NCBI GenBank assembly: GCA_947624775.1
Contig: CANQLT010000001.1
Coordinates: 2,184-66,183, forward strand
Length of the DNA stretch: 64,000 nt
DNA from: an uncultured Monoglobus sp.
GTDB taxonomy: Bacteria > Bacillota > Clostridia > Monoglobales > Monoglobaceae
Reading direction: 5' to 3'
The notes beneath the pieces are model-generated. The model was given only the letters and a program-made list of their open reading frames with translations, was not told where the DNA came from and made no database searches. The translations under genes and the position numbers were made by a program. Positions 11,616 to 38,298 of the stretch are shown here, piece after piece; position 1 is the first letter of the stretch, and each line of letters opens with the position of its first letter.

Positions 11616-11626
11616 CTGTTTATTAA

Positions 11627-17525: not shown

Positions 17526-18494
17526 TTACGTTGTTTTCTGTTTAACATTTGGCTTGTATTCTTTATTTAACAAAACGCTCCTGAGATCTTCTATTTTTTC
17601 AAACCTTTCGGAAGCGTGAATCGCCATACCCTTTTTAAGAGCTAATTTAACATTATCCGGTAAATTATCGGGAATAATTAATGTATCATTCATAAGGCGC
17701 TCTATAGGATTGGGCGGAACTTTGCCTGTTATCATTCTGTAAAAAGTAGCCGTCAGGGCGTAAACATCAGTCCAAGGACCTTGATTTCCGCTTTTTCTGT
17801 ATTCTTCCTCCGGTGTGTATCCCGTATTAAGCAAAATTGAAAGATTTTTTTCTCTCCCCATCGGCAGACTCGCCTCACTGAAACCAATAAGCTTAACCTG
17901 CGAATCATTGGTAATAAAAATATTATCCGGATTGATTTCTCGATGAATTATTCCCGCCTTGTGAATCCGGGACAAAGCGTCCATAATAGGCGACAAAATT
18001 TTCACCGCACTTTGATATGGTATAATGTTGTTGTTTTGTTTAATATAATCGTCTAGCGTTATTCCATCCAAAAACTGCATTATAATATATGCGGTCCCGT
18101 TTGCCTCGATACAGTCTCTAATCCCGGCTACGCCCGGTAATTCGGAAAATCTTGCAAGATTTCTTGCTTCCTCGATAAACCTAGCCTTTCCGCGTTTATA
18201 TTCCTTTTCAACGCTCTCGCTATATGGGATAACAAGGATTTCCTTGCGCTGAACAAAATTTAAAGGGTAGTATTCTTTAATTGCAATTTTTTGTTTCAGC
18301 GTATTATCATAACCTATATAAGTTATTCCGAAACCGCCCTGAGCTATTACGCTGCCTATAATAAAACGGTTATTCAACACGGTGCCGGGATTTAAATACA
18401 CAGGATTTTTAGGCTGTGCATTTTCGACATATCCGCAATGAGGACACTCCTTGCTGTCCCCTTTTTCATTCATACATCCAATACATATACTCAT
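17526..18494 (-). CDS. Zinc-ribbon + Hanks-type kinase-like protein, predicted pseudokinase
   Basis: CIGC...CPHCG ribbon, GGFGITY loop, AIKEY. The catalytic loop is HREINPDN (not HRD) and DFG is replaced by GFS. Start placed at ATG 18494 (GAGG RBS); the ORF-track start 18542 is GTG. Confidence 0.8.
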   Translation of the reverse strand: MSICIGCMNEKGDSKECPHCGYVENAQPKNPVYLNPGTVLNNRFIIGSVIAQGGFGITYIGYDNTLKQKIAIKEYYPLNFVQRKEILVIPYSESVEKEYKRGKARFIEEARNLARFSELPGVAGIRDCIEANGTAYIIMQFLDGITLDDYIKQNNNIIPYQSAVKILSPIMDALSRIHKAGIIHREINPDNIFITNDSQVKLIGFSEASLPMGREKNLSILLNTGYTPEEEYRKSGNQGPWTDVYALTATFYRMITGKVPPNPIERLMNDTLIIPDNLPDNVKLALKKGMAIHASERFEKIEDLRSVLLNKEYKPNVKQKTT

Positions 18495-18542
18495 TTTAAC
18501 CTCACATAAACCATCGGGAGATGTGCCGAAACACATTATCAC

Positions 18543-19940
18543 TTACTTACATTTTACAGCATATATATCATATGTTTTGTCGTCCTTTTTCGCGCAGACA
18601 TAATCTGTTCCGTCGGAATAAGCATAAGTATATTCAGTATAATCTTTAATCAAAGTCTCGCCTGAAATTGTGTCAATTAAGTTGTATTTATATTCTTCGG
18701 TGTTAGATTTAACTATCCACTTACCAAGGCTATAACCGTTTATCGTATAGTCTTTATCCTTTAAGCAGTAATATACGGTTTTATCTCCGTTCTTTTTACC
18801 AAAAACAAATCTTTTATTGTCGTTATCCGTTCCGTCAAGAGTGATTACATCTCCGTTTATTATCAGGTCCGCTCCGCCGCTTTCCTTTTCAAACAGTACG
18901 GCTGATTTTGTCATATTATCTATGTAAGCGTTTTCATAATTCCCTTCAAGAACAGAATTGCCCTCAAAATCGTACACCTTATTTTGTGACAGGATGTACT
19001 CATTAAATATTTTTATATTGTCGCTGAATTCGGCAGATATTTTTTTGCCGCTTCTGTCAAGGACAACATAATTATTCGATTTACCCGAATCTTTTTCGGA
19101 AGCTATAAAATATCCGGTATTAACATCACAACCCAATAAACTTAAAGTGTCATTCGAAAAAGTAAATAGTAAATCTCCTTTATCATCATATACGGATGAA
19201 GTGTCATTTTCCCTAACAGAATATGAACCGTCATCATACACGGTTGCATCTTTCGGCAGAACCGTGCCTTCGCTGTTCACATGTATTTTTTCTTCTGCGT
19301 CCGTCACATACGACAGTGTGTTTCCGTGGGCCGAAATGGTGTATGCTTTTGTACCGCTTGCGCCCTTGATCATACTTTTTTCTTTTCTGTCATAAACACA
19401 CCAGTTTCCGGTATATAATTTATCGCCATCACCCGGGCCAACACTAATCCAGTTGTCAGATTCATAAATAAGGGCATCATCTTTTGAATTCGTTTCTCCC
19501 GTCACCTTGCACGCTTTGATATACCTATCATTCAAAACATTAAAAGATGCATATTCTTCCGGCAATATAACGTTTCCGGAGGAATCAACAAGACCTCCTA
19601 AATTATGCTCAGATTTATCATCGGGTATATCAGTTATGACTTCAAATAAATTATCGTTCTGCTTACAGTAGTCATAAACCGCGCCGCTATCGTGCTTTCC
19701 GTCGAAGCTCATAATACCATACTTATCTCCGACCTTATAGATAATGCCGCCTGAGGCTAAATCTATCTTATCAAAATCGGCTGTAATCTCATTTATTTTT
19801 TCGGCTGAAAGAGCAGTTGCCGAAAGAGCGCTTGTGCCCTCCTTGGGCTGCGTGACCGTTTGGGTCGCAGTATTGCTGCCGCAAGAAACCAAAAGCAGCA
19901 TAGTGAAAATTAAACACATTCCAATAATAATTTTTTTCAT
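18543..19940 (-). CDS. Lipoprotein with WG/KWG-like beta repeats
   Basis: Lipobox LLLVSC-GS. Repeated ...KYGIMSFDGK... / GLVDSSGNVILPEEY type repeats. Confidence 0.65.
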   Translation of the reverse strand: MKKIIIGMCLIFTMLLLVSCGSNTATQTVTQPKEGTSALSATALSAEKINEITADFDKIDLASGGIIYKVGDKYGIMSFDGKHDSGAVYDYCKQNDNLFEVITDIPDDKSEHNLGGLVDSSGNVILPEEYASFNVLNDRYIKACKVTGETNSKDDALIYESDNWISVGPGDGDKLYTGNWCVYDRKEKSMIKGASGTKAYTISAHGNTLSYVTDAEEKIHVNSEGTVLPKDATVYDDGSYSVRENDTSSVYDDKGDLLFTFSNDTLSLLGCDVNTGYFIASEKDSGKSNNYVVLDRSGKKISAEFSDNIKIFNEYILSQNKVYDFEGNSVLEGNYENAYIDNMTKSAVLFEKESGGADLIINGDVITLDGTDNDNKRFVFGKKNGDKTVYYCLKDKDYTINGYSLGKWIVKSNTEEYKYNLIDTISGETLIKDYTEYTYAYSDGTDYVCAKKDDKTYDIYAVKCK

Positions 19941-19972
19941 AATAGACCCTCCTTGTTAATATGCCTGTTACA

Positions 19973-22297
19973 CTATATACTCCAATTTTCAAATGAGTTA
20001 ATTATATTTTTTATTTCGTTTTTATCCTCATATGTCGGCCATCCGACTCTGATCTGAATTGCAACATCTTTTTGTAATTCATTATATAAACAAACCATAT
20101 CATATTCGCCATTAGAATAACCGGACGAAGAAGTATATTCCTGAACAGTAAAGTTTTTTCCGGCAATATTCATCGAAAACGGCTTGCCGCTTTTCTGAAG
20201 CCCCGAAGTTACTCCCGCGCTCATAACTTCCAACCACTCGTCAACAGTCGCGTGTTCTTCCGCGGGTTCAACCACTATTCTGATTGTATTTTTAAAATAG
20301 GGGTCCTGCTCACCTACTTGTTCAAGGATCATTTCATAGTTAATTCTAAAATCTTCGGGTATCTCATAACTAAATCGATCATAAAACTCTTCATTCGTCA
20401 AGAACACGTATCCATCAGGCGGATCAAGCTGCCAATTCAGACTAAGGTTTTTATATTTTCCGTTTATTATTTCGCCCGGACTGAACGCAAGCTCAATTGT
20501 TCCGGTGAGTCCGTCGTTTTCTGAATCGACAGTATTATCTCCGTTATTTGCACTTGACTCCTCATTAGTCGTTTTATCGGAGGTGACTGACTCATCTATA
20601 ACTGACATGCTTTGAGAATTCGACGCGCTCTGCGGTTTCAGTGCGCTTTTAAAATCAGCAAAAACGCATGTATAAATCAATGAAATGACACAAAACAACA
20701 CACAAAGAATAATTCCAACAGTTGCCATGAGCATATCACTCTGTTTTTTCTGCTTACGCTTCTTATAAACCTTTATGCCGGAAATACCGGACAATATACC
20801 CGCTATAGGAACAACAATATATTGAATTATCATTGTCTGCAGATTTAACTCGGTTTTAACGATAAAACTCAATGCTATATTTACAATTAAATTCAAGCAC
20901 GTCACTATTCCGAAAATAAGTGCCGCCATACAAGTCCTATCCGCTCCGACATTATCTTTTTTTATAATAGAGTTTACGGAATTTTGAACCGGAGGAGCCG
21001 GCTTATTTGTCTTAAGAGGGTAGTCTGAAACATATATATCAAAATATTTCGGACTCTTTCCGTACTGATTTACCCTTTTCTCACTGTCAAATAACTCCAT
21101 TATAAAAATCGCCAATGAGCCGACAAGTGTTAAGTTTAATATCAACACCGCGGCCGAAAATCCCATGTCATGCAGTCTCCTGAACCGCAGCGAGATAGAC
21201 GGAATTATCGTGGCAAAAAACCAGCCGACCATAGCTAATAATGAGGCTATAACACAAAAAGTCGAGAGCGAACGAGCACCGCCGGAAAGCCCGGCAAGCA
21301 ACATTCCACAGAGCATCGGCAAAGAGCATACGAAATAAACAATAATATGTGCCAATACCATAAAAAAATACTCGCTTCGGCGCGCTCTTCCGGAAAAATT
21401 CGTATAATTTTTAAATGCTGATTTTATCGCTTCGATAAATCCGACCGCAGGCCTTTCACCGTTGATTTCTCGTTTTTCCCCGATTGAATATTTTAGAAAT
21501 TCCCTAAAATCAGGGATTTCCTTTTCGATTTGCTTTACATATCGATCAATAATCTCCGAAATTTCAGCTCGGCCATTATAATTAATTTTTAAAGCCGTAA
21601 TAACAATGTGATAAAACATCGGTAAATTGTCGACATTCATAGTAAGCCTATATAAATCATCAGCAAGTCTTAGACTTTTTCCGTCAAAAACCATCATTGA
21701 ATCGCGTCCATTGTCATTCCCGTAAACAGATTTTACGTATACCGTCGTCTTAACACCTGAAAACGGCGATATAACGTCATAAATCTCTCGGTCATTTTCA
21801 ACTCTTTTCTCGGGTTGAAACGCGATCTCAATGATTTTTTTAATATTATCCTGCATGCTAGCGTAAGCATCTCCGTAGTTCATATGCGTAAATTTGGAAT
21901 CCGGAGCGACCGAGCCGATACAGGTTGTTTCAGCAACGCTTTCTTCAACTGTGAAGAATTGCATTTTGTCCATTCCGTACTCATTTTCGATATAAGTAAA
22001 CGCATAGGCTGTGCAATACACGAGAGAACCACTGTGCTCATGCGGCAACGCCGCATACAGAAGATGTTTTTCTTTAGTGATATCAAATTTTATTATGTGG
22101 AAATCCTCACTCCTGAACTTTAACGACATTGCTTCCTCAAAAGATTTTGCGTTTCGTATATAGTGTTTATTGAAAGTGTTAAACAAGAAATTCTCTTTTT
22201 CAACAAGCAATCTCCTTATAAAAGCCTCTCTATTCTGATAGAACAATTGAGGAATTACGTAAAAATCCAAGCTGTATCTTATATTGTCTTGCTGCAT
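19973..22297 (-). CDS. Large multi-pass membrane protein with central DUF805 module
   Basis: GRARRSEYFF...RRLHDMGFS DUF805 signature. Has a ~290-aa cytoplasmic N-domain, at least 8 hydrophobic helices and a ~230-aa C-terminal ectodomain. GAGGGAG RBS. Confidence 0.65.
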   Translation of the reverse strand: MQQDNIRYSLDFYVIPQLFYQNREAFIRRLLVEKENFLFNTFNKHYIRNAKSFEEAMSLKFRSEDFHIIKFDITKEKHLLYAALPHEHSGSLVYCTAYAFTYIENEYGMDKMQFFTVEESVAETTCIGSVAPDSKFTHMNYGDAYASMQDNIKKIIEIAFQPEKRVENDREIYDVISPFSGVKTTVYVKSVYGNDNGRDSMMVFDGKSLRLADDLYRLTMNVDNLPMFYHIVITALKINYNGRAEISEIIDRYVKQIEKEIPDFREFLKYSIGEKREINGERPAVGFIEAIKSAFKNYTNFSGRARRSEYFFMVLAHIIVYFVCSLPMLCGMLLAGLSGGARSLSTFCVIASLLAMVGWFFATIIPSISLRFRRLHDMGFSAAVLILNLTLVGSLAIFIMELFDSEKRVNQYGKSPKYFDIYVSDYPLKTNKPAPPVQNSVNSIIKKDNVGADRTCMAALIFGIVTCLNLIVNIALSFIVKTELNLQTMIIQYIVVPIAGILSGISGIKVYKKRKQKKQSDMLMATVGIILCVLFCVISLIYTCVFADFKSALKPQSASNSQSMSVIDESVTSDKTTNEESSANNGDNTVDSENDGLTGTIELAFSPGEIINGKYKNLSLNWQLDPPDGYVFLTNEEFYDRFSYEIPEDFRINYEMILEQVGEQDPYFKNTIRIVVEPAEEHATVDEWLEVMSAGVTSGLQKSGKPFSMNIAGKNFTVQEYTSSSGYSNGEYDMVCLYNELQKDVAIQIRVGWPTYEDKNEIKNIINSFENWSI

Positions 22298-22362
22298 AAT
22301 ATTTCTCCCTCATTTTAACGCCGCAAGAAGGTGCGAGCATTTTAACTATATACCGAGCTCAT

Positions 22363-23355
22363 CTAATAGGAAATATAAACCGTCTGGGTCAGATCATCCC
22401 AGCTTACGTTCGCGCCGAAAGCCTCCGCAGCAGCTCGCAACGGAATATATGTGCGGTCGCCGATCACAGTCGGCACCACGTCCATTTCAAACATATCATA
22501 ATTATGGAAACAATACTTTCCCCCAATGTACATGGCAACTCTGTCTGTGCCACTGCCGTTCAGCATGGTTACAGACTCGTTTTCCTCATTCCAAACAACG
22601 GTATATCCCATTTTTTCGGCCACGGCTCTTATCGGAACCAAGACCCTGTCATTTTGCATTATCGGCGGGCTGTCGGGATAAATATATTCGCCGTTCATAA
22701 CTATGCTTATTACGCCGGGCACGGACGGGGATACATAAGAGATGTTATTTTGCGGGAAAGATATGCTCTGCATCATCGCGTTAACATCCGAAAAATGATT
22801 GCTGTTGTCTGTGCGTATATAAGCTACCACGACCGTCATTCCGTTATGAATAGTCTTATACAGCGTAATGTATCCGCCGTACGGATAATACCCGCTCACC
22901 GTTGCAGTAAAGGCTTTTTCAACTCTGAAATATTCGATCCCGTTTATCGTCTCGCGGCTTGTCAGCTCGGACTCGCTTTTTACATACGGATTACCTAATA
23001 AAATATTCGAAATTGATTCATTGCTTATAGAAGCTTCACAGCCCGAATATAAGAGATCGTCACTCAAATTCTCCGTATTATACGTGCTGTCTTTTCCGTA
23101 CGCACTGCTCGTATCAACTATTGCGACAGCAACACTCTCGTTATCTCCGTATTCATACCGGTACTCGATCGCACTGCCGACAACTCCGTCTATACCGGTG
23201 CTTTCATAGTATCTCCAGTTATCCGACATGACCAGTGAGATACCCGTCGCGTCGTCCTTATAATACTGCGCGAAAACGCATGTGTTAAGCATAAGCATAA
23301 GCATAACAACCATCATAGCCGTGATTTTCACTATCATTTTTGTTCCACGTTTCAT
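22363..23355 (-). CDS. Secreted protein with C-terminal copper-amine-oxidase N-terminal-like (stalk) domain
   Basis: Signal peptide MKRGTKMIVKITAMMVVMLMLMLNTCVFA. C-terminus NDRVLVPIRAVAEKMGYTVVWNE...DRTYIPLRAAAEAFGANVSWD. Start at ATG 23355 with GGAGGAAG RBS. Confidence 0.75.
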   Translation of the reverse strand: MKRGTKMIVKITAMMVVMLMLMLNTCVFAQYYKDDATGISLVMSDNWRYYESTGIDGVVGSAIEYRYEYGDNESVAVAIVDTSSAYGKDSTYNTENLSDDLLYSGCEASISNESISNILLGNPYVKSESELTSRETINGIEYFRVEKAFTATVSGYYPYGGYITLYKTIHNGMTVVVAYIRTDNSNHFSDVNAMMQSISFPQNNISYVSPSVPGVISIVMNGEYIYPDSPPIMQNDRVLVPIRAVAEKMGYTVVWNEENESVTMLNGSGTDRVAMYIGGKYCFHNYDMFEMDVVPTVIGDRTYIPLRAAAEAFGANVSWDDLTQTVYISY

Positions 23356-23424
23356 TTTAAACTTCCTCCTTTTTATTGTCACATCTTTTATTACTAATCC
23401 CCTATTGACAAAAATCACAATATT

Positions 23425-24210
23425 TTAGCCGGTGGTGCTCCAGCCCATTTTTTTCTCATAATCGACCAAAACTTTGAGGTTGTTTCCGTCTTTTTCGTTC
23501 ATCAAGCCACGAACATAATCCTGATCGTCATACAAAGGCTCATACCAGGTCTTTTGAGAAAAATAATCTTTATATTCTTCAACATTGAATATGTATCCGT
23601 ATCTCGCGTAAATTTCGTTTACCATAAGGCGAACTGTTTTCTTAGTCTTTTCGGCGCCGTTTTCAGAATAAAAATCCGTAAGGTCTTTTTCGGTCAACAC
23701 AGTGCCGGGGTTTAAAATATAACCGTTTCTTCCGGGATTCGCGTTTATTACTCCGTTCGAGATCGGAGGATCCTGAGGCGGAGTCGGCACCGGGGTTGGC
23801 TTTGGAGTCGGCTCCGGAGTGAGCTTTGGGGGTGGTTGCGGCGGTTTATCGGGTTCATCCGGCTGCGGAGTGACAATCGGCGGCACTCCGCCCGGAGGCA
23901 AACCTCCGCCTCCGCCGCCACCGCCAAATGATGGAGCAGTTTTTTTGTTGCTTCCAAATATTGCCGGATGCGGCACGTACCCTGTCAAATAGCTGTTATC
24001 GGCCAACACATACGCGATAAATCCCGCCAAGCATGCCGCTGTAACCGATAACAACGTAATAAGTATAATAAACGCCCTGCTGTTGTATATTGGCTTTTTA
24101 GTATTGTGCGCGGCTTCGTTGGCTTTTTTAAGAGTTGATACTCTGGTTTTGCATTTATCGCAAAACACAGCGTCATCCGGAAGCTGCTTCTTGCATTTTG
24201 GGCATATCAT
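23425..24210 (-). CDS. Zinc-ribbon / TM / proline-rich / YARHG-domain protein
   Basis: MICPKCKK...CDKCK ribbon, one TM, a PPQPPPKLTPEPTPKPTPVPTPP linker and an EIYARYGYIF YARHG signature. Confidence 0.75.
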   Translation of the reverse strand: MICPKCKKQLPDDAVFCDKCKTRVSTLKKANEAAHNTKKPIYNSRAFIILITLLSVTAACLAGFIAYVLADNSYLTGYVPHPAIFGSNKKTAPSFGGGGGGGGLPPGGVPPIVTPQPDEPDKPPQPPPKLTPEPTPKPTPVPTPPQDPPISNGVINANPGRNGYILNPGTVLTEKDLTDFYSENGAEKTKKTVRLMVNEIYARYGYIFNVEEYKDYFSQKTWYEPLYDDQDYVRGLMNEKDGNNLKVLVDYEKKMGWSTTG

Positions 24211-24236
24211 AATAACTCCTCCTGTGTTAAATAGTC

Positions 24237-25289
24237 TTACTTAATAATTATTTCAGGCTTATCCGCCTCGTAATTAAAAGACAACTTAGCTTCTCTATCG
24301 GCTTCGCAGTATTGCTGTATCTGGACATAAATCATCATGGTTCCGTTATTATTAACAATACAAATCCCGCTTAAATCAATAGGTGACGAATGTTCCTTAT
24401 CGGTATACATTTTTCGTTCTTTAACATCAATATACCGATAAACTCTTTTATCACTATTTGGAATCTGCGCGTCAAGCTGAGCGTATTCGGGAATCTCGTT
24501 TTCAGTGTCATAGGTATATTGTCCGTATTTATCACCATTCTCATCGCTTTGATCGAACATATAGTACTCATTCCATAAATCTCTCAAACGGATGTAATGC
24601 TGACTGTTAATGATACGAACCAGCATACTTTTGTCAACATCATCAACATTTGACTCTCTGCCATTTATATTGATTATCTTGACAGTGCCGGGAAATTCGA
24701 CAGTTTCGCTCAACTGAACAACCGAAATAACTTGATTGTCGCCCGTGTCCGAAGGCGAACCGTCAATGATATTTGAATCGCCGTCCGGTGATTTGCCGCC
24801 GTTTCTACCGGAAGCCAGCCAAAAAGTAAGAAATGCTATAACCACTATCGCAGCGGCTCCCGCTATAATAATCTTCAATTTTATACTTTCGCGCTTTTTT
24901 CGAGCGAGACGCGCCTCGCGCCGTTTTATAGCCTCACCGTCCGGCCGTGGCGGCGGCGAAGCATTATAAGCAGACGGCGTCACTAACGGTGCCGCTGGAT
25001 ATGCCTCAAAATCTTGAACCTTGTTGGCAGAGTCGGATTTTTTAAGAATGTCTTCCTCCTCCAGGTTTTCCGTTTTGGGAACGCTGTCGCCCTCGGGTAT
25101 CATATTGGGATACTCTGTCAGTGGGGTGTTTAAATTAACACCTGTCTCAAAAGCGCCGCTGATCAGCCATTTATCCGAAGAATCAACGGCCTCGAAATAA
25201 TATCCGTCATCCTTATCAATCTGGCATCCGCATACGGGACAAACTGTTGCATTATCATCAATTATTCTTCCGCAATATTTACATTTCAT
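24237..25289 (-). CDS. Zinc-ribbon / TM protein with uncharacterised ectodomain
   Basis: MKCKYCG...CPVCG ribbon and TM IIIAGAAAIVVIAFLTFWLA. The remainder was not recognised. Confidence 0.6.
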   Translation of the reverse strand: MKCKYCGRIIDDNATVCPVCGCQIDKDDGYYFEAVDSSDKWLISGAFETGVNLNTPLTEYPNMIPEGDSVPKTENLEEEDILKKSDSANKVQDFEAYPAAPLVTPSAYNASPPPRPDGEAIKRREARLARKKRESIKLKIIIAGAAAIVVIAFLTFWLASGRNGGKSPDGDSNIIDGSPSDTGDNQVISVVQLSETVEFPGTVKIININGRESNVDDVDKSMLVRIINSQHYIRLRDLWNEYYMFDQSDENGDKYGQYTYDTENEIPEYAQLDAQIPNSDKRVYRYIDVKERKMYTDKEHSSPIDLSGICIVNNNGTMMIYVQIQQYCEADREAKLSFNYEADKPEIIIK

Positions 25290-25310
25290 AAAATCACTCC
25301 AAAGCTTAAA

Positions 25311-26039: not shown

Positions 26040-26050
26040 ATTTACCTCCG

Positions 26051-27193: not shown

Positions 27194-27253
27194 ATTTTTT
27201 CCTCCGCCGCCGCGATTTTTAGCGGGCTGTTTTTCGAATATTAGAGTGGCGCC

Positions 27254-27282
27254 GGACTTCCGCACATATTGCGCGGAAGTCC
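27254..27282 (-). other. 10-bp perfect stem-loop in an intra-operon gap
   Basis: ggacttccgc (27254-27263) / gcggaagtcc (27273-27282) with a 9-nt loop. No U-tract follows. Confidence 0.5.
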
Positions 27283-28817: not shown

Positions 28818-28833
28818 ATTCTCCTCCTTTTAA

Positions 28834-29574: not shown

Positions 29575-29589
29575 CTAAATCACCTCCGT

Positions 29590-31014: not shown

Positions 31015-31043
31015 TTCCGCAACACCTCATCCTTGCATCGCAA

Positions 31044-32312
31044 TTAATATCTGATTTCAAACATATTTTCGGGCGCAGCAAGATAAAACTTATCGCCTGA
31101 TTTAAGCACCTGCGGCGAATTAGCGGCCAGTTTGCTGCCGTTAACAAATGTTCCGTAGCTTGAGCCGAGGTCCGTAATGGTGCAGACCTTTCCGTCAAAC
31201 GAGATTTCACAATGTCTCGCGCTTATACCCTTGGAATTAACAGGAAATGCGATATTGCATTTTGATGAATCGCGGCCGATCCTGCTTGTTCCGTTTACGG
31301 CAAATGTTTTGCCGTTTAAATAACCGTTCATCGCGACCAATCTCGCCTGTTTTGGCGACGGGCTCGGAGCAGTCTTGGGTGGTGCGGTACCCCCTGCGGT
31401 TCCTGCCGTGGTTCCTGTTACCAAGGGATATGTTGCTCCGGTGGGCTGAGTTCCGCCCTCTCCGCCTTTGCCGCCTTTATTCTTGCGAACCATAACCAGC
31501 ACAACGATCAATATCGCTATCAATACGAGAGCCGCAGCCAAAATCGCGATAAGCAGCGGACTAATATTAGATGATGTCGCAACTGTAATCGGAATCGTGT
31601 TGGTGTCTATCGAGCCGATAAGCTCGTCGATAGCTATCGCGTAACTGGGCGCAATTGTTACGTCTGCCATATTAATTCCGAATGATGATATGCCGACAAC
31701 CTGGCCCTTTGAATTAACTACCGGACCTCCCGAGTTTCCGTTTTCAATAGTCATATCAAGAAGATATACTTCCTCGCTGTTGATTCTGTCGGCCTTTTTA
31801 ATTCCTCCGCGCGTAACAACGATATCCGAAACGTCAAATTTTGCATAGTCGGTGTTCTCCGAACCGATATTGGGATAACCCAGAGCAGCAAAATCATCGC
31901 TGAGATCTATGGCGTCGGCCGGGCATAAAGTCAAAGCCTCTCTCATGGTTGTGGGTTCGGGTAATTTCAGGACCGCAATGTCCTTTTCCTCATTGTAATA
32001 ATACACGTTTGCCACCATAAAGTTATTGGCGGCCGCCGAAAAATAAACATAAGCGGTATCGGGTGTATAGCCCTTCCACTCCTCGACCACATGATTGTTG
32101 GTTACGATAAACTGCACCGGCTCACCCGGCTTTCCGATGGCAAAACCGGAACCCTGCGATGTTTGACTGTTGTTTACAACGCATACAACTCCGTTCTTGG
32201 CGCTTGTGATATCCGTTACCTCAGCGGATACAGTCATTGTCACAAATGACATAACAATCATCGCGATAAGACAAACGCTAAGTATTCTTGATACCGTTTT
32301 CAAATTTCTCAT
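31044..32312 (-). CDS. Trypsin-like serine protease (intact triad) / TM / FHA-domain protein
   Basis: Signal peptide, TNNHVV (His), EKDIAVLKL (Asp), GNSGGPV (Ser), TM LLIAILAAALVLIAILIVVLVMV. FHA: RIGRDSSKC...GISARHC...SSYGTFVNG. Confidence 0.85.
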   Translation of the reverse strand: MRNLKTVSRILSVCLIAMIVMSFVTMTVSAEVTDITSAKNGVVCVVNNSQTSQGSGFAIGKPGEPVQFIVTNNHVVEEWKGYTPDTAYVYFSAAANNFMVANVYYYNEEKDIAVLKLPEPTTMREALTLCPADAIDLSDDFAALGYPNIGSENTDYAKFDVSDIVVTRGGIKKADRINSEEVYLLDMTIENGNSGGPVVNSKGQVVGISSFGINMADVTIAPSYAIAIDELIGSIDTNTIPITVATSSNISPLLIAILAAALVLIAILIVVLVMVRKNKGGKGGEGGTQPTGATYPLVTGTTAGTAGGTAPPKTAPSPSPKQARLVAMNGYLNGKTFAVNGTSRIGRDSSKCNIAFPVNSKGISARHCEISFDGKVCTITDLGSSYGTFVNGSKLAANSPQVLKSGDKFYLAAPENMFEIRY

Positions 32313-32355
32313 TTTGATCTTCCTTCCTTTGTTTTTATTTTAATTTATTTTTTTC

Positions 32356-33261
32356 TTAATTTATTCTGCCGCAGTGTATAAGCATAGCGGTAAGATTGTC
32401 CTGTCCCGGGAGCGATGCCCGCAGGACAGCGTCCGCGATCATTTCGACAGCTTTTTGAGGAGCGGCTGACAAGATAATATCTTTCAGGTGCTCGGATGAG
32501 ACCGCGTTATATACTCCGTCTGAACACAGCATAAATGTGTCTCCCGGAATAATATCAAACTCATGCTTTGAATAATCCACAAGCGAAAGCTCTTCCTTTC
32601 CGACAAACGCTGTAAGGCTTGCTTTCTGCGGATCGGTTCGCGCGTCCTCGATGGTATTTTCGTCTTTGAGAACACCTCGAAGCATCGTGTTCATATAATC
32701 ATGATCCTCGTTTATCTGATAGATTCCGTTATTTCGTATGACATACAATCTGCTGTCGCCCACACATGCCCAGCTTAATTTGTTTTTATAAATATGAATA
32801 ACAATTGCTGTGGCTCCCGCGGTGCTTCTTGCCCCGTCAGCAAATTTTTCGCTGATGGTTTTGTTTATCGCGAGAATAATATTCGCCAGCTGCATTCCCA
32901 TATTTGCCGAGGGCGTCAGTTCGGAGGTCAAGGAAATCGCATTACTCACCACATATTCCGAAACAGCCTTGCCGTTGCTCAGGCCGCCCATTCCATCCGA
33001 TAAAACGGCCGTTATGCCGCGGCTGCTGACTATATCGCCATTTGTGATATTTGAATATCCGAAAGAATCCTCCTGATAAGGACGAGCTCCCTGATCCTGG
33101 GCGTTGCCCATCCTTATGCGCATGGCATGATTCTCATCAAACTTCAAATCAACGTAATTATCCTCAAAACCCGTCTCAGTCACAGGCTCGGGCGGCTGCT
33201 CTCGATTTTTGCCGCTTTTACTGTCGTGCGAGAAAATACTGCTTATATTTTTCAATGTCAT
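32356..33261 (-). CDS. PP2C-family Ser/Thr phosphatase (PP2C-2)
   Basis: GARPYQEDS, SDGMGG, VGDSR and CSDGVY motifs. Has a ~50-aa N-terminal extension. Confidence 0.85.
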   Translation of the reverse strand: MTLKNISSIFSHDSKSGKNREQPPEPVTETGFEDNYVDLKFDENHAMRIRMGNAQDQGARPYQEDSFGYSNITNGDIVSSRGITAVLSDGMGGLSNGKAVSEYVVSNAISLTSELTPSANMGMQLANIILAINKTISEKFADGARSTAGATAIVIHIYKNKLSWACVGDSRLYVIRNNGIYQINEDHDYMNTMLRGVLKDENTIEDARTDPQKASLTAFVGKEELSLVDYSKHEFDIIPGDTFMLCSDGVYNAVSSEHLKDIILSAAPQKAVEMIADAVLRASLPGQDNLTAMLIHCGRIN

Positions 33262-33299
33262 ACCCCATTTCTGAAAATATTATGTATTCCGGCGGCAGC

Positions 33300-34676
33300 T
33301 TACTGCATGGGCGGCTGACCCATCGGAGGCGGTCCTCCCTGTCCCATCGGCGGCGGTCCCGGAGGCGGTCCCATTGGCGGCGGACCCGGGTTCATAGCTT
33401 TGAATATCAGAACCATAACAAGTATTATGATAATCACAGCACCGGCTACAAGAGCAATTGCAAGCAAATTCTTTTTATGCTTTTCCTCCGAATCCTCAAC
33501 CAAAACAGACGGCGGAAAGCCGGAGGGAGCGTAACCCGAGTTGGGAAAACTTGACGGACCGTAGCCCGAATTGGGAAATCCGGACGGCGGTATTGGCTGA
33601 TTGCCGATTACGGTCTCGAAAGGCTGGGAACCCAAATGGGTTTCTTCTCCGCCAACCTTCGACTGTATAACATTATCAAAAGATTTAAACGCCGGACGCA
33701 TAACAGGAAGCTTTTTCAGCTCCTGCTGAACCTCGTAGCTGCTCTTGTATCTGTTTTGATATTCGAGCTGCATACATTTGTTGAGTATGTTTCTAAACTG
33801 CTCCGAAACCCCCAGCTCCGCGGCGCTCTTGATCTCATACTCCTTGTTTTCTATGCGGCTCATTGCGTCATCGGGAATCGCTCCCGTGAGAGCGTAATAA
33901 ACCGTGGCACCCAACGAGTAAATATCCGTCCACATACCGTGTTTTCCGTTTTTCTGATACTGCTCGATCGGTGCGAATCCACGCTTTAAGATAACCGAAA
34001 GGCTCTGAGACTCCTCGCCTACAAACTGCTTCGCGGCACCAAAGTCTATTAGCTTTGCGGTATTGTTTTTGCACACGAAAATATTATCGGGAGAAATGTC
34101 CCTGTGTATGGTTCCGGTACTGTGGATAACAATAAGAGCCTTGCAGATGTTTTCCATAATAGAAACAGCTTCGCCTTCAGTGATCCTTCCTCCGCATTTC
34201 TTTACATAATGCTTTAAATCAACACCGTTTAAGTATTCCATGGAATAATAGGCCGTGTTGTTCTCGTAAAAGAATTCATACACGGTGGCGACATTGGGAG
34301 CGTCATTAAATGTGGAAATTATTTTTGCTTCCTCGTAGAACCTGTTCGCGCCTTTCTGGAACAGATTCTCTTTATCAGAGGAAAGCACCGTTATCTTGCT
34401 TTCTCCCTCATTTCTGTGCGCTATGCCTATCGGATAGTATTCCTTAATAGCGACTACACTGTTGTTTTTGATGGAAAACGCCAGATATGTGGCTCCAAAC
34501 CCGCCGCGTCCGATTGTTCTTCCAATAACATATTTGCCCGCAAGAACGGTTCCCGGCATTAAAAGTCCGGGCTCGGTCTTATATTTTGCGGGTGTCAGAT
34601 GACAATGCGGACACTCGGTATTGGGAGCGATCTGCTCAAAACAGTAATCACAATAATGCCTGCCGTTATAATCCAT
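33300..34676 (-). CDS. Ser/Thr protein kinase (zinc ribbon / Hanks kinase / FPNSGY repeats / TM / polyproline tail)
   Basis: CDYC...CPHC, GGFGATY, AIKEYYP, HRDISPDN, DFGAA and APIEQ motifs. TM LLAIALVAGAVIIIILVMVLIF. C-terminal PGPPPMGPPPGPPPMG. Confidence 0.9.
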   Translation of the reverse strand: MDYNGRHYCDYCFEQIAPNTECPHCHLTPAKYKTEPGLLMPGTVLAGKYVIGRTIGRGGFGATYLAFSIKNNSVVAIKEYYPIGIAHRNEGESKITVLSSDKENLFQKGANRFYEEAKIISTFNDAPNVATVYEFFYENNTAYYSMEYLNGVDLKHYVKKCGGRITEGEAVSIMENICKALIVIHSTGTIHRDISPDNIFVCKNNTAKLIDFGAAKQFVGEESQSLSVILKRGFAPIEQYQKNGKHGMWTDIYSLGATVYYALTGAIPDDAMSRIENKEYEIKSAAELGVSEQFRNILNKCMQLEYQNRYKSSYEVQQELKKLPVMRPAFKSFDNVIQSKVGGEETHLGSQPFETVIGNQPIPPSGFPNSGYGPSSFPNSGYAPSGFPPSVLVEDSEEKHKKNLLAIALVAGAVIIIILVMVLIFKAMNPGPPPMGPPPGPPPMGQGGPPPMGQPPMQ

Positions 34677-34695
34677 TATATTTCCTCCTTTTTGT

Positions 34696-35436
34696 TTATT
34701 TTTGAAGCCGCATAATGCACACGGCTGAATAATTGTCTTTCACTCGTTTATCGCTATGCTCTATAATATCAAGCATTTTGCGGTTCCAACTGCCCGCGTC
34801 AAATGACGCTTTCAATGTTGACTCCATCTCTTTTTCGGTCACGTTTTCCCAAAAACCGTCAGAGCAAATCAGAAACGCATCGTATTTTCTTATATCTTTT
34901 ATTAGCTTTACGCCGCAATAATTTATCTGCTCAATACCCAACGCAGATAAAAGCGTGTGTCTGTCAAGACAGTTCCTTATATCTTCAAAGCCTATTTCTC
35001 CGTGCTTATATTTTTTGAAAGCCAAACTGTGGTCAACGCTTATGCTGCAAATTTCTTTGTTTTTAAAAGAATATATCCGCGTGTCTCCGACGTTACACAA
35101 AAAGGCTTTTTTACCTTGTCTGAATATACCGGAAAAAGTGGTTTTCATTTGGGTCTCTTCGGTTTGTATTTTATTAACAGCGTCGTTCGCGCAGTCAATA
35201 ATTTTAAGCAGCGTTTTCTTATTTAGCTTGACACACTTTTCAAACTCGCCATCAACAGCGGCAACGGCCGCCTTTGAAGCGAGATCCCCGCCTCCGTGCG
35301 CCCCCAAACCGTCCGCAATGCAAAACAATTCCTTGTCGCTGTCGTATATCCGCGTAAAAACCGTATCCTCATTTATTGGTCTGTCGCCGATATCAGTGCT
35401 ATGTACCTCATCGGTAATCCAAAAATTTTTACTCAT
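34696..35436 (-). CDS. PP2C-family Ser/Thr phosphatase (PP2C-3)
   Basis: GDRPINEDT, DGLGAHGGGD, VGDTR and CSDGFW motifs. Its start overlaps the upstream stop (ATGA). Confidence 0.85.
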   Translation of the reverse strand: MSKNFWITDEVHSTDIGDRPINEDTVFTRIYDSDKELFCIADGLGAHGGGDLASKAAVAAVDGEFEKCVKLNKKTLLKIIDCANDAVNKIQTEETQMKTTFSGIFRQGKKAFLCNVGDTRIYSFKNKEICSISVDHSLAFKKYKHGEIGFEDIRNCLDRHTLLSALGIEQINYCGVKLIKDIRKYDAFLICSDGFWENVTEKEMESTLKASFDAGSWNRKMLDIIEHSDKRVKDNYSAVCIMRLQK

Positions 35437-36968
35437 TTTTTATCAACAACTGTCCGCCTTTTTTTCAAAAACAAAATAACCAAGGCAATCGCAATTACAT
35501 CGATCAAACCTGCAACGACTGTCACGATTGCGGCATTTCGTTTTGTCCAAAAGCTTTCACCGATCTGTTCGCCGCCTATATTGGGCATAGCCTCATCGGG
35601 CGTATTGTACAAAGTGTTAAACAGACGATAAAGCACTGTTGCTGCCTCGGCTCTCGAAATAGGACGCGACAAATCACCGCCTCTGAAAATTCTCTCTCTG
35701 TACGCCAGAGCTATTTCGTTTTTAGCCCAGCCACTCATTGTGTCAACACCTATGAAGTTCATATAACGATCCGGATCGGCAGGATAACTGTAACCCAGCT
35801 TGTCAGAGATGGTACGCGCCGCAAGAACAGCTACCTGCTCAACAGTGGCGTAAGTGTCGCCCCGAAACGTACCGTCCTCAAAACCTTCAACGATATTGCT
35901 GTTTTGAGAAGAGGCGACAAAGCGGTAAAACCTGCTTGAGCGCGGCACATCGGAAAACGTCGTTTTCGCGTCGTTGTCAATTGCAAAAAACATCCTCACC
36001 AACGCCTCGGTATAATCATATCTGGTAAGCGGCATATCAGGCTTGAACTCACCGTTTTCAGCGGTGAAATAATTCCTTGCCGTCATAAATCCTATTGCAA
36101 TTTTTTGTTCCTCATCAAGATTAGAAATGTCCGTTATGCTTACCGCCGTCTCACGAATATCATACTCTCCCGAGTAAACCGTGTCGAAATCCAGGGTTCT
36201 GTCAACGGCGTTGTACTGCCCTCCCCAGTTATCCGCCGCGTTGCCGTAAGCGGCATACACGCTCATATCCGCGTTTTCCGCCGGTAAAGATACTCTGACC
36301 GGCGCAGCAATTCGTTCAACAGTTTCTTGTTTTTGATTCTTAAATTCTATTTTATACTTATCCTCATTGGCATCTCTTTTAATATACGCTCCGAAGGGCA
36401 CACCACTCGACGAAAAGGCTGTCAAAGTACTTGAGCGAAGCGCAATTGAAACGTCCATTCTCTTTAATATTATTCTGAGATTGGTGTTTTCAGGTATGGC
36501 TCTCATCGATTCTGCCGGAACGATCAAGCTGATACCGTTATTAATCGAGGTTTTTTCACAAAAAACCATTAAATCAGAGAATATTTCCCGATTCAGAGTA
36601 ATATTCCGCTCTGAAAGGATCTCCTCAAAAGCGCGTTTTGTCTCAGTGCATAGATTAATTCCGTATCCGGTTATTCCGGGCTCTACAACAACTCCCGAGC
36701 TTCCGTCAATAAATATGCTGCCTTTAAGCCTGATAACATATTCAATATAATTTGTGATATCCTCTAAATCGCCGTCGGTAAGTGCGTCTTGTGAAATTCC
36801 CGAAAGCGCGCCGCTCAAATAGGCGACATAGTCTCCATTTTCGGCGGCCTCGCGATAATTAATGCTGAATTGCTTTGCGTCCGCCTTGATATCAAAGAAT
36901 TGCACGAGACTCAAAGCAATCAGAAACATCGCTGCGCATAATTTAAATCCTTTTTTCACCCGTCTCAT
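35433..36968 (-). CDS. Secreted protein with SLH-like repeats and a C-terminal TM anchor
   Basis: Signal peptide from MRRVKKGFKLCAAMFLIALSLVQFF (start set at ATG 36968; ORF-track start is 37043). FSDVPRSS...VEGFEDGTFRGD...TVEQVAVLAAR and SRAEAATVLYRLF are SLH-like. Confidence 0.6.
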   Translation of the reverse strand: MRRVKKGFKLCAAMFLIALSLVQFFDIKADAKQFSINYREAAENGDYVAYLSGALSGISQDALTDGDLEDITNYIEYVIRLKGSIFIDGSSGVVVEPGITGYGINLCTETKRAFEEILSERNITLNREIFSDLMVFCEKTSINNGISLIVPAESMRAIPENTNLRIILKRMDVSIALRSSTLTAFSSSGVPFGAYIKRDANEDKYKIEFKNQKQETVERIAAPVRVSLPAENADMSVYAAYGNAADNWGGQYNAVDRTLDFDTVYSGEYDIRETAVSITDISNLDEEQKIAIGFMTARNYFTAENGEFKPDMPLTRYDYTEALVRMFFAIDNDAKTTFSDVPRSSRFYRFVASSQNSNIVEGFEDGTFRGDTYATVEQVAVLAARTISDKLGYSYPADPDRYMNFIGVDTMSGWAKNEIALAYRERIFRGGDLSRPISRAEAATVLYRLFNTLYNTPDEAMPNIGGEQIGESFWTKRNAAIVTVVAGLIDVIAIALVILFLKKRRTVVDKK

Positions 36969-37725
36969 CTTCGGAACTGCAATTAGCACATTTCTTCTCT
37001 CCTTTTTCAAGCGGTCTGCCGCAATAAACGCAATAATTTTCATAGCTTTTTTGCATACCTTGCGGTATATATGACTGAAATATTACATTGCTGACTTTCC
37101 GTTTAAGTATATAGCTGCTTGTGTAAACGCTGTCAATGTGAATTATTGAAATATGTATCAAAAATCCTACCGCGCTAACCATGAGCCACAAGCATACAAA
37201 CACCGCGGTTCCGAGCGAATTGCCAAGCGCATACGACACCGCCCACAAAGAAACGGCAATCATGCCTCCGCCGCTCAAAGCGGTGGAAATCATGGACACA
37301 TAATCAGCAAAAAGATAAAGGTATAGCAGCATAATTATGCTTATGAGCAGACCAACTATAAACCCTTTTTCGCTGAACCCCGCGTTTGGGAATCCTGTCT
37401 TGCCGATTAAATAATACAGCGAAATCAGAAGTAATATGCCCGATATAATTATTTCTCTTGCAGTCTTAAAGCGATACGACACAATAGCGGCTGCAATTCC
37501 TACAATAACCGTGCCGGCCGCCGTTACAAGAGGCATGTCAAATTGTCTCAAAATTTCGAAAGCCATTACTGATCCCGCGTAAAATCCGCACGCAATAATT
37601 ATCAGCATATTTGATTTATAGCCTTTAAAGCACAATATACCGCCAATAATTATCGAAAACATCGCCGCGAACAAAATTATCAACTGTATGTGCAGGGCCG
37701 GAAGTAAGTTAAACATGTATACCAC
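36943..37725 (-). CDS. Multi-pass membrane protein with C-terminal zinc ribbon
   Basis: About 7 hydrophobic helices. Ends CVYCGRPLEKGEKKCANC. Confidence 0.6.
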   Translation of the reverse strand: MVYMFNLLPALHIQLIILFAAMFSIIIGGILCFKGYKSNMLIIIACGFYAGSVMAFEILRQFDMPLVTAAGTVIVGIAAAIVSYRFKTAREIIISGILLLISLYYLIGKTGFPNAGFSEKGFIVGLLISIIMLLYLYLFADYVSMISTALSGGGMIAVSLWAVSYALGNSLGTAVFVCLWLMVSAVGFLIHISIIHIDSVYTSSYILKRKVSNVIFQSYIPQGMQKSYENYCVYCGRPLEKGEKKCANCSSEDETGEKRI

Positions 37726-37731
37726 ACACCT

Positions 37732-38298
37732 TTATTTAAGTTTTGTTCCGCATTTTTTGCAATAATTCCACGTTTTATCATTAACGTAACCGCATACACA
37801 TCTAATACCGTCAATCGGTATAGGCTCCCAATGAAAATCACCATCAACGTCATCAACAGCATCAGCGGCATCGGCTGCATCGGCAAATTTGAAAGGCTCG
37901 TCAAGGTTTTCGGGTGAAAAATGTTCTTCATTTGTCGAATAATCCTCAACCGTACCTTCATTTTCGGAAGACGTGAAAGCCGTTTCACTCAATTCTCTCA
38001 TTTTGGCAAATGATTTGAGTAAGCTTTTAGAAGGCAGCTTCCCTTCAATTCCGAGGTTGTAACATATGTATCCAAGCTCTTTCATTTTGTCGTCAATACG
38101 CTTTTTTATCTCTGCCTCGCTGTCGCTTTCGCCTATGTTGCGATAGCCAAACATTATGCTAAAAAGATTTTTGATGTATTCGATTTTATCCTTGGGAACA
38201 CCGCAGTTCTCATTGCCAACACTGATGTTATAGCAGCCGTAACCCATTTCCACGGCAGCTTGATCTATATCAATGTCTTTTTCCAATGACACATTCAT
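37732..38298 (-). CDS. Hypothetical protein with C-terminal zinc ribbon
   Basis: Ends RCVCGYVNDKTWNYCKKCG. The N-domain was not recognised. The coding frame is clean and tightly packed. Confidence 0.55.
   Translation of the reverse strand: MNVSLEKDIDIDQAAVEMGYGCYNISVGNENCGVPKDKIEYIKNLFSIMFGYRNIGESDSEAEIKKRIDDKMKELGYICYNLGIEGKLPSKSLLKSFAKMRELSETAFTSSENEGTVEDYSTNEEHFSPENLDEPFKFADAADAADAVDDVDGDFHWEPIPIDGIRCVCGYVNDKTWNYCKKCGTKLK

Follow-up and report, generated by a model that had tools for sequence, protein, structure and literature searches.

A paralog-rich kinase, phosphatase and FHA gene cluster of an uncultured Monoglobus sp. and its relation to a conserved Firmicute gene module

Introduction

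Why should some 20 kb of a bacterial genome carry several copies each of protein kinases, protein phosphatases and FHA proteins, interspersed with proteins of the cell surface? The question is raised by positions 17526-38298 (hereafter the cluster) of a 64,000-nucleotide stretch of DNA from an uncultured Monoglobus sp. (assembly GCA_947624775.1, contig CANQLT010000001.1, positions 2,184 to 66,183), which is referred to as the window. An earlier reading of the letters, here termed the original prediction, placed about 21 tightly packed genes on one strand of this interval. The packing holds, with 19 co-directional minus-strand open reading frames (ORFs) rather than 21 and with intergenic gaps of -101 to +82 nt. 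The uniform strand is not specific to the cluster, as nearly all long ORFs from 275 to 42274 lie on the minus strand.

The answer proposed here, with a probability of about 55%, is that a conserved, self-contained Firmicute module for trans-membrane phospho-threonine signalling has been expanded with paralogs in this lineage, giving the cluster. On the best reading, a base module of five to six genes is widespread in Firmicutes, and the expansion consists of old duplications together with lineage-specific surface proteins. To our knowledge, Ser/Thr kinase-PP2C-FHA signalling in Firmicutes is known almost solely from a single PASTA kinase/Stp pair. The module would suggest that these bacteria have a further phospho-threonine system, modular in build and broadly conserved, with a marker family of thousands of 50%-identity clusters.

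Phospho-signalling genes of the cluster

The domain calls at the centre of the original prediction, namely three Hanks kinases, three PP2C phosphatases, four FHA proteins, two RDD modules and two trypsin-like modules, all have matches in Pfam. The genes in question are listed here with their zinc ribbons (ZnR) and transmembrane helices (TM):

17526-18542, minus strand: N-terminal ZnR and Hanks kinase, no TM, truncated (322-338 aa); Pkinase E 3e-23
25311-26039, minus strand: short soluble PP2C_2; PP2C_2 E 1.4e-15
26051-27265, minus strand: signal peptide, dead trypsin-like domain, TM, cytoplasmic FHA; Trypsin_2 E 2.5e-7, FHA E 2.4e-11
27348-27938, minus strand: soluble ZnR, disordered linker and FHA (ZnR-FHA), the core marker, with a GKT31IPLD site; FHA E 8e-8
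28834-29574, minus strand: RDD membrane domain and cytoplasmic FHA; RDD E 6e-25, FHA E 2e-11
29590-31014, minus strand: N-terminal ZnR, Hanks kinase, C-terminal RDD membrane domain; Pkinase E 1.4e-41, RDD E 6e-10
31044-32312, minus strand: signal peptide, trypsin-like protease, TM, Thr-rich linker, cytoplasmic FHA; Trypsin_2 E 1e-21, FHA E 2e-17
32356-33261, minus strand: long soluble PP2C with an N-terminal extension of ~55 aa; PP2C E 2e-12
33300-34676, minus strand: N-terminal ZnR, Hanks kinase, linker, TM 407-425, outside tail of 33 aa rich in Pro and Gly; Pkinase E 7e-38
34696-35436, minus strand: second short PP2C_2; PP2C_2 E 2e-12

Eight zinc ribbons had been predicted (in the genes at 17526, 23425, 24237, 27348, 29590, 33300, 36943 and 37732), and a regular-expression search recovers the Cys motifs of all eight. 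Six are strict CxxC...CxxC ribbons, whereas 27348 has CxxxH...CxxC and 37732 has CxC...CxxC. Four of the eight have sub-threshold matches to Pfam zinc-ribbon families; the remaining four, which belong to the kinases and ZnR-FHA, are based on family-wide conservation. The catalytic motifs of two kinases, three PP2Cs and one protease are intact, and those of one kinase and one protease are absent.

Membrane topology was assigned by hydropathy analysis, which makes 13 of the 19 products membrane or secreted proteins. The soluble remainder comprises the three phosphatases, ZnR-FHA, the 17526 kinase and a 188-aa ZnR protein. The view that the majority of products couple a domain outside the cell to a phospho-signalling domain within it stands for five of the 19 (the two trypsin-TM-FHA proteins, RDD-FHA, kinase-RDD and kinase-TM) and not for the rest, all three phosphatases being soluble.

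A conserved core of five to six genes

Conservation of gene order is evidence that these genes belong together. The original prediction had set itself against two outcomes, failed domain calls and homologs scattered over related genomes; a neighbourhood-conservation search was run, and the homologs are syntenic. In two relatives, GCA_964442605.1 (L001) and GCA_964579875.1 (L003), the trypsin-FHA protein used as the seed is 79% and 55% identical to that of the window, respectively, and gene order is kept from a VTC gene (ending at 42274) down to 24237, a block of 16-17 genes. Because this order is conserved across genomes, the cluster is not an accidental accretion. When orthologs are compared, conservation is good in the kinase domains, in ZnR-FHA and in the active protease, whereas the ectodomains of the Cu_amine_oxidN1 protein at 27984 and of the ZnR-TM protein at 24237 (ZnR-TM-X) diverge fast.

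A smaller set is conserved at much greater distance. In other genomes, co-directional genes follow one another in a near-constant order: ZnR-FHA, long PP2C, trypsin-TM-FHA, short PP2C and one or two kinases with an N-terminal ZnR. A protein with an extracellular vWA domain, a TM and an FHA domain (vWA-TM-FHA) often joins this core. The window has the complete core (ZnR-FHA, long PP2C, a secreted domain linked by a TM to FHA, short PP2C_2 and an N-terminal-ZnR Hanks kinase), adjacent and co-directional. Carriers include Paludicola sp. MB14-C6, Ruminococcus, Oscillibacter, Scybalocola, a Lachnospiraceae metagenome-assembled genome (MAG), further Clostridia MAGs and contigs, and Cohnella yongneupensis of the bacillus class. 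The genome scan was seeded on a trypsin-FHA alignment; eight of its 80 loci were analysed, and many of the matches are generic HtrA-type GNSGGP proteases. The core is present in the eight loci examined, in Paludicola (L005) and in a further locus, L088; the last two cores have housekeeping genes on their flanks. Variants occur within this set. L012 is a short contig that stops with no short PP2C, and in two loci (L011 and L013) the X-TM-FHA gene matches the protease-FHA protein of the window through the FHA part alone. A likely diderm Firmicute (L087) has a reduced set of FHA, PP2C, ZnR-FHA and kinase, without the protease-FHA protein and the short PP2C.

A metagenome scan seeded on ZnR-FHA alone, with a 9-sequence alignment, gives an independent view. 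It yielded 33 loci that are 6 kb or longer and in which a ZnR-FHA gene was called; neighbours were defined as lying within six co-directional genes. A long PP2C is found in 28 of the 33, a short PP2C in 25, a kinase in 26 and another FHA protein in 30 (19 of these with trypsin); all four partners occur together in 18. These counts are lower bounds, because many contigs end early.

Apart from FHA, vWA, Big_2 and TPR, Pfam detects no recurrent family among 68 other neighbours in core loci, and the flanks hold unrelated housekeeping genes. The core module is thus self-contained.

The window differs from these loci in copy number. Its paralogs are only 30-39% identical to one another, so the duplications are old, and recent tandem duplication was dropped as an explanation on the same figures. 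The genes at 34696, 26051, 28834 and 29590 look like copies that were added or have diverged. The best match of the core protease-FHA protein is split between 31044 and 26051.

The soluble FHA protein and its predicted phospho-site

ZnR-FHA is the marker of the core. Among 1.84 billion representatives clustered at 50% identity, 4542 match its family at E<=1e-3; with thresholds of E<=1e-10 and E<=1e-30 the numbers are 3015 and 94. The looser counts may take in unrelated FHA proteins. The 27348 product has all family-invariant residues, comprising the CxxGH...CPxC ribbon and the GWLVC signatures. Of 241 members, 191 have TxP[LIVMFA] in the linker between ribbon and FHA domain, compared with 48±6 in shuffled linkers, and the motif lies mostly 7-9 residues past the zinc ribbon; the window copy is GKT31IPLD. 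In an AlphaFold 2 (AF2) model the FHA domain has a pLDDT >90 and the linker is disordered.

By profile search and by fold search of the AF2 model, the nearest relatives of the FHA domain are GarA, OdhI, FhaA and DgcB (fold match TM 0.84-0.92). GarA, OdhI and DgcB each bind their own N-terminal tail once it is phosphorylated, and pT-x-x-L is the ligand type preferred by many FHA domains. Like these three, ZnR-FHA is a small protein in which an N-terminal disordered segment with a conserved Thr precedes the FHA domain. Unlike ZnR-FHA, GarA and OdhI have no zinc ribbon and carry an ETTS motif rather than TxPL, and their targets (KGD, GDH and GltS) are not implied for ZnR-FHA. ZnR-FHA looks like a switch of the GarA/EsrG type with a conserved TxPL site (EsrG is described below).

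Membrane-tethered readers

The remaining FHA proteins are tethered to the membrane, and all three keep the GR and SxxH residues of the FHA site. In the protease-FHA protein at 31044, the catalytic residues H74, D111 and S194 and the FHA residues G346, R347, S364 and H367 are invariant across 13 homologs. It has 363 homologs at E<=0.001; the Trypsin+FHA architecture occurs in all 120 that were listed, and those with names are Clostridia. Its juxtamembrane linker contains nine Thr in 57 residues, including a TYPL sequence. The nearest named family of the protease is MarP (E 1e-21, 77 bits against a cut-off of 250). However, MarP has an N-terminal anchor of four TMs, whereas the 31044 product has a signal peptide and one TM after the protease domain. 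The part from TM to FHA has a weak resemblance to FhaB/FipA in NCBIfam (E 2e-9, below cut-off).

The 26051 product has lost two members of the catalytic triad (His to Ser and Ser to Ile), and its linker has zero Thr. Because its orthologs in L001 and L003 show identical changes, it is a retained pseudoprotease. RDD-FHA, the third tethered reader, has counterparts beside the core in L090, L093, L127 and L132; the role of the RDD domain is unknown (PMC12419801). Elsewhere, the five FHA partners of ~500 aa that were scanned are all signal-vWA-TM-FHA proteins. In one further locus (L103:4906-6186) the TM-FHA partner is a PrsW intramembrane protease fused to FHA.

Kinases and phosphatases

Each of the three window kinases has its ZnR at the N-terminus, as do 95 of the 120 homologs listed. 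The 29590 kinase has HRD, DFG and the catalytic Lys (CAVK), and the 33300 kinase has HRD, DFG and VAIK; the kinase domain of the latter is 96% identical in L001 and 79% in L003. The 17526 kinase, whose reading frame probably begins at the ATG at 18494, has HRE and GFS where HRD and DFG are expected. It is alone in this among the 120 nearest homologs listed, which are mostly ~550 aa long. Truncation and these uniquely degenerate motifs make it a probable pseudokinase or decaying copy; that it is a conserved pseudokinase was considered and dropped, the degenerate motifs occurring in none of its orthologs. No ortholog was found in L003.

None of the window kinases has a Pfam PASTA match. The 17526 kinase, the sole kinase run on NCBIfam, scores 123 bits on PknB_PASTA_kin against a cut-off of 450. 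Of four large core kinases scanned elsewhere, three carry LRR (leucine-rich repeat) or BspA-LRR/DUF5050 ectodomains and that of Cohnella alone has PASTA and FG-GAP; the Paludicola core kinase has a Big_2 ectodomain. Among L103, L010, L011, L013 and L009, core kinases reach 880-1126 aa with LRR, BspA-LRR and DUF5050, or PASTA and FG-GAP, an architecture like that of receptor kinases. The kinases of the Monoglobus lineage have lost large ectodomains, and surface proteins encoded apart from them have been recruited.

All three PP2Cs lack a TM segment by hydropathy, and their translations show the usual metal-binding motifs (DGLGGH, GDSR, SDG and DN in 25311). The 25311 copy is most often the closest match to the core short PP2C, giving the best BLAST match in eight of nine other core loci. 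The other short phosphatase, at 34696, is a paralog 37% identical to it and was not found in L003. The long PP2C at 32356 is Stp1/IreP-like in NCBIfam, below cut-off (127 bits against 230), and its orthologs adjoin ZnR-FHA in all core loci.

A possible mechanism

In the proposed scheme, the writers would be the N-terminal-ZnR Hanks kinases, which elsewhere have variable LRR, PASTA, FG-GAP or Big_2 ectodomains, and the erasers two soluble PP2Cs, one long and one short. Two types of reader would act with them: FHA domains tethered via one TM helix to a trypsin-like protease (elsewhere also to vWA, and here also to RDD), and the soluble ZnR-linker-FHA protein. An envelope or surface cue would activate the membrane kinases, which would phosphorylate Thr residues in disordered linkers; candidates are the conserved TxPL site in ZnR-FHA and, in the active protease-FHA protein, the Thr-rich linker next to the membrane. 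FHA domains would then bind the phospho-threonine (pThr) sites in cis or in trans, and a membrane complex would be assembled or released. This complex could switch ZnR-FHA as a cytoplasmic output, in the manner of GarA, OdhI or EsrG, and/or position or gate the ecto-protease, and the PP2Cs would reset the phosphorylation state. In the Monoglobus lineage, contacts with the outside would perhaps be made by the SLH, Cu_amine_oxidN1, YARHG and ZnR-TM-X proteins.

A model in which linkers would be phosphorylated, read by FHA domains and reset by the PP2Cs is supported by the conservation of TxPL, the likeness to GarA, OdhI and DgcB and the Thr-rich linker of the protease. The favoured role, which we infer, is sensing of and response to cell-surface events, such as envelope damage or a biotic threat, over core cell division. 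In this architecture FHA readers are tied to an extracellular protease or vWA domain, and the kinases include receptor-like LRR forms. The predicted TxPL phospho-site, the retained pseudoprotease and the degenerate kinase would be entry points for work on testable candidates for surface sensing in Gram-positive gut and soil anaerobes.

Several observations weigh against this reading of the cluster. The pThr-site residues of ZnR-FHA include Gly-Arg and Ser, but in the clade of the window Asn replaces the canonical His (SKGTN versus SRxxH), and pThr binding by the window protein may thus be weakened; SRxxH is retained in most of the family. AF2 leaves the TxPL segment undocked from the FHA domain. 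No conserved output gene, whether a transcription factor or an enzyme, was found among the 68 neighbours, and the window kinases are missing the large ectodomains that would make them evident receptors. The distal part of the cluster, 17526-23418, was not found in L003, the sole relative with a contig that runs past the cluster (that of L001 ends before this part), and the distal genes may lie functionally outside it. A single transcript is assumed from the small gaps alone; promoter and terminator scans of the window performed no better than shuffles. Finally, we infer every mechanistic step of the scheme.

Comparison with known systems

The original prediction held that the partners defining three known sets, the actinobacterial FhaAB-PstP-RodA-PbpA-PknAB locus, the Fha1/PpkA/PppA pathway of the type VI secretion system (T6SS) and TerY-P, are missing here. 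Indeed, none was found in the cluster, and nothing in NCBIfam was matched above a curated cut-off. The fhaA-fhaB-pstP-rodA-pbpA-pknA-pknB locus resembles the cluster in that a single operon holds two FHA proteins (one anchored by a TM), a PP2C and a pair of membrane kinases. However, PstP is membrane-anchored whereas the PP2Cs of the cluster are soluble, the PASTA kinase of that locus is unlike the window kinases, and the ecto-protease, RDD and ZnR modules of the cluster are absent from it. Moreover, neither a SEDS protein (RodA/FtsW) nor a class B penicillin-binding protein (PBP) is found as a Pfam family in the 22 products from 17526 to 42274.

The T6SS module of PpkA, PppA and Fha1-TagH shares with the core a vocabulary of kinase, PP2C, FHA and vWA, and a logic in which sensing on the outside leads to pThr-FHA assembly on the inside. 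In the T6SS pathway the vWA domain is on the kinase, whereas in the module it is on the FHA protein, and the host is a Firmicute. No T6SS structural genes (TssA-M, Hcp or VgrG) were found in the window, and the TagH model VI_FHA gives 20-28 bits against a cut-off of 120 in NCBIfam.

TerY-P consists of a TerY vWA protein, a PP2C and a Ser/Thr kinase, according to PMC11090510 (citing Anantharaman 2012 and Gao 2020). The module is similar in having a PP2C_2-type phosphatase, a Hanks kinase and a zinc ribbon, with vWA in many core loci elsewhere. The TerY-P kinase, however, has a C-terminal zinc ribbon or OB fold, whereas the kinases of the cluster have an N-terminal ZnR. Likewise, the TerY vWA is cytoplasmic whereas that of core loci is secreted and fused to TM-FHA, and FHA readers and protease are integral to the module. 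Pfam finds no vWA between 17526 and 42274; one at 44228-44956 lies past a divergent integrase and has no PADLOC match.

The closest parallel is Esr (EsrA-G), an actinobacterial threat-sensing pathway (Wang et al., bioRxiv Sept 2026, PMC13622651). In this pathway the Thr phosphorylation of a disordered region of EsrG, the FHA output protein, is under the control of a kinase and a phosphatase together with a surface sensor, MoxR, vWA and a transglutaminase, and some EsrG variants have zinc fingers; Esr is reported to be effectively confined to Actinomycetes (PMC13622651). EsrG and ZnR-FHA have the same layout of N-terminal domain, disordered region and C-terminal FHA; the disordered region bears the regulatory pThr in EsrG and the conserved TxPL Thr, a predicted phospho-site, in ZnR-FHA. 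Additionally, in both systems a kinase/phosphatase pair is encoded with FHA and vWA, and the surface-exposed parts are the most divergent. However, Esr requires the filamentous beta-propeller EsrA, a MoxR ATPase, a stand-alone vWA protein and the transglutaminase EsrD. None of these families is matched in the cluster or recurs among the 68 neighbours. The module in turn has TM-tethered FHA with an ecto-protease or vWA, two PP2Cs and ZnR-kinases, unlike Esr. As MoxR, beta-propeller sensor and transglutaminase are absent, the cluster is an analogue of Esr and not a member, and by this analogy a system of its kind is no longer without precedent.

A further likeness is to DRA0331-DRA0334 of Deinococcus, an operon of vWA, kinase, FHA and FHA-PP2C proteins with push-pull control through FHA docking (bioRxiv 10.64898/2026.01.23.701218). 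In contrast to the module, no protease, zinc ribbon or TM-tethered FHA is described for this operon, its PP2C has an FHA domain of its own, and it is linked to DNA-damage kinases. Full-text literature searches returned no paper that describes the core module or the arrangement of the cluster. The claim that this is not a described system is upheld to that extent. The cluster is not a one-off, and Esr is an analogue.

Alternative explanations

The likeness to Esr invites a more specific reading, in which the core is a Firmicute-wide and so far undescribed surface threat-sensing pathway, a counterpart of Esr that detects epibionts, phages or competitor proteins. We regard this as less likely than not. 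If true, the response would run via phospho-switching of ZnR-FHA and an ecto-protease controlled from the inside out, the 20-kb cluster would be a diversified, multi-receptor version of the pathway, and Firmicutes would perhaps have an analogue of the Esr anti-epibiont pathway. A related but somewhat less likely idea is immunity against phages or competitors of the TerY-P or conflict type, with a kinase/phosphatase/vWA trigger carried on a mobile defence island. The shared vWA, PP2C_2 and kinase vocabulary (for TerY-P, PMC11090510) would fit it, as would LRR-type variable ectodomains, fast-diverging surface proteins and weak matches of the short PP2Cs to the PADLOC candidate PDC-M21C (E 1e-10). 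Yet the PADLOC kinase matches are generic, the vWA of the core is extracellular and FHA-fused rather than a cytoplasmic TerY (with none in the cluster), the kinase ZnR is not C-terminal, and no nuclease, toxin or NTPase effector recurs among the 68 neighbours. Signs of mobility are similarly divided. Integrase, vWA and TIR-WD40 genes neighbour the cluster in the window, a resolvase abuts it in L003, and the GC content at third codon positions (GC3) is below that of the purine-biosynthesis (pur) block at 275-12479 that opens the window (0.64-0.75). However, the low GC3 (0.35-0.57) extends to every gene that lies right of tRNA-Arg(CCT) at 12631-12705, a span of ~50 kb, and the cluster is thus compositionally like its surroundings. 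No att-type repeat of the 3' end of this tRNA was found elsewhere in the window, a ZnR-FHA relative occurs in just one of 2.9 million viral contigs, and the Paludicola and L088 cores sit among housekeeping genes. Mobility is for that reason not a property of the core; it is possible for the expanded block.

Housekeeping control of cell wall and division is a distinctly unlikely account of the core, in which it would be the Firmicute counterpart of FhaA/FhaB-PstP-PknA/PknB or PrkC/PrpC and the ecto-protease would act on wall hydrolases, MarP-like. It draws on the PASTA domain of the Cohnella kinase, the weak FhaB/FipA and MarP resemblances of the protease-FHA protein, the Stp1/IreP-like long PP2C, the location of several core loci among housekeeping genes, and wall-related domains close by (YARHG inside the cluster and GH25 outside). 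Against this, neither FtsW/RodA nor PBP genes occur within or next to the window cluster or the Pfam-annotated loci, and neither recurs among the 68 neighbours. PASTA is limited to Cohnella among the four large core kinases scanned, the other three being of LRR types, and the Paludicola kinase has Big_2. No NCBIfam equivalog cut-off is reached, and copy number and composition vary strongly among loci, which one would seldom expect of a division module that is essential. That unrelated signalling and surface genes came together by accident and share no function is very improbable. The distal genes missing from L003, the Cu_amine_oxidN1 proteins scattered across the window and the decaying look of the 17526 kinase would be expected from it. 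But 16-17 genes keep order and content at 55-80% protein identity, the core set recurs in different Firmicute classes and in a majority of the 33 independently seeded metagenome loci, and the pseudoprotease is kept with the same substitutions in three genomes. For the core, accretion is already refuted by this synteny, and it could apply to the distal third of the cluster only. The reading as an expanded version of a conserved signalling module is preferred over all of these.

Surface proteins and other genes of the cluster

The other products of the cluster are as follows:

18543-19940, minus strand: predicted lipoprotein with lipobox LLVSC and one N-terminal hydrophobic segment; no Pfam or NCBIfam family
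19973-22297, minus strand: DUF805 protein with six TMs and large N- and C-terminal extensions (hydropathy); DUF805 E 3e-18
22363-23418, minus strand: signal-anchored surface protein with one TM and a C-terminal Cu_amine_oxidN1 "stalk"; PF07833 E 2e-31
23425-24210, minus strand: cytoplasmic ZnR, TM 47-65, Pro-rich stalk, extracellular YARHG; YARHG E 1.5e-13
24237-25289, minus strand: cytoplasmic ZnR, TM 140-158, extracellular domain of ~190 aa without known fold; Zn_Ribbon_1 E 4e-4
27984-28817, minus strand: low-complexity cytoplasmic tail, TM 69-87, extracellular Cu_amine_oxidN1, Pro/Gly tail; PF07833 E 5.5e-7
35433-37043, minus strand: signal peptide, ectodomain without known family, SLH, C-terminal TM 506-524; SLH E 1e-9
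36943-37725, minus strand: protein with six to seven TMs and a C-terminal ZnR; TM7S3_TM198 below cut-off, Zn_ribbon_3 E 1.6e-3
37732-38298, minus strand: soluble 188-aa protein with a C-terminal ZnR and otherwise no known fold, no TM; Zn_Ribbon_1 E 6e-4

The SLH, YARHG and DUF805 modules named in the original prediction are all matched in Pfam, and the copper amine oxidase N-terminal stalk is matched twice. The call of a WG-repeat lipoprotein at 18543-19940 was dropped, as PF14903 (WG_beta_rep) reaches only E=0.69.

For the ZnR of 23425-24210, DZR and Zn_Ribbon_1 match below cut-off, and the L003 ortholog is 35% identical. Orthologs of 24237-25289 are 55% (L001) and 25% (L003) identical, and the ectodomain of 27984-28817 reaches just 26-32% identity among orthologs. 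The cytoplasmic N-tail of the latter has GYPNS-type repeats, and a stretch of 59 residues shares 42% identity with the juxtamembrane linker of the 33300 kinase. The genes at 35433-37043, 36943-37725 and 37732-38298 have orthologs in relatives, L001 and L003 being named for the first and the last. In the window, Cu_amine_oxidN1 occurs in five proteins (22363, 27984, 45035, 54635 and 56239) with partners as varied as S8 protease, NlpC/P60 and unknown domains; it appears to be a general surface-anchoring module of the organism and not a feature of the cluster.

Genomic context and minor observations

Upstream, three genes are contiguous with the cluster on the minus strand, with gaps of 11, 9 and 50 nt (families from Pfam):

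38310-40877, minus strand: Cthe_2159
40887-41558, minus strand: DUF4956
41609-42274, minus strand: VTC

Their order is the same in L001 and L003, and they are not found beside the core in distant loci. This trio is probably a separate functional unit, which may share a transcript with the cluster.

Past VTC lies the divergent integrase (42550-43623, plus strand). Beyond it, on the minus strand from 44228 to 51228, a vWA protein with weak CoxE/TerF likeness, a subtilase with Cu_amine_oxidN1 and SH3_3, and a 1257-aa protein with TIR and a WD40 beta-propeller stand in a row, which looks like a conflict or immunity-type neighbourhood. Prophage cargo was also considered and dropped, given the single viral-contig match. 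A partner-switching set at 51240-54523 comprises STAS (51240-51623), an anti-sigma-type HATPase_c_2 kinase (51607-52047) and a SpoIIE-type PP2C (53639-54523), which adds another Ser-phospho module to the window. At 58010-63546 (minus strand), two ABC exporters, one with a C39 peptidase, and an HlyD-like protein form a bacteriocin-type export set.

On the other side of the cluster, at 12750-14040 (minus strand), a sigma-70 family factor resembling the extracytoplasmic function type overlaps a DUF4367 protein, a probable sigma/anti-sigma pair. Between this pair and the cluster lie genes for a flavodoxin, a GH25 lysozyme and two methyltransferases. An 82-aa ORF without a family match (17300-17548, minus strand) has an overlap of 23 nt with the degenerate kinase gene at the 3' end of the latter, and a strong, TG-extended promoter-like site with 11 of 12 matches lies on the same strand at 17303-17275.

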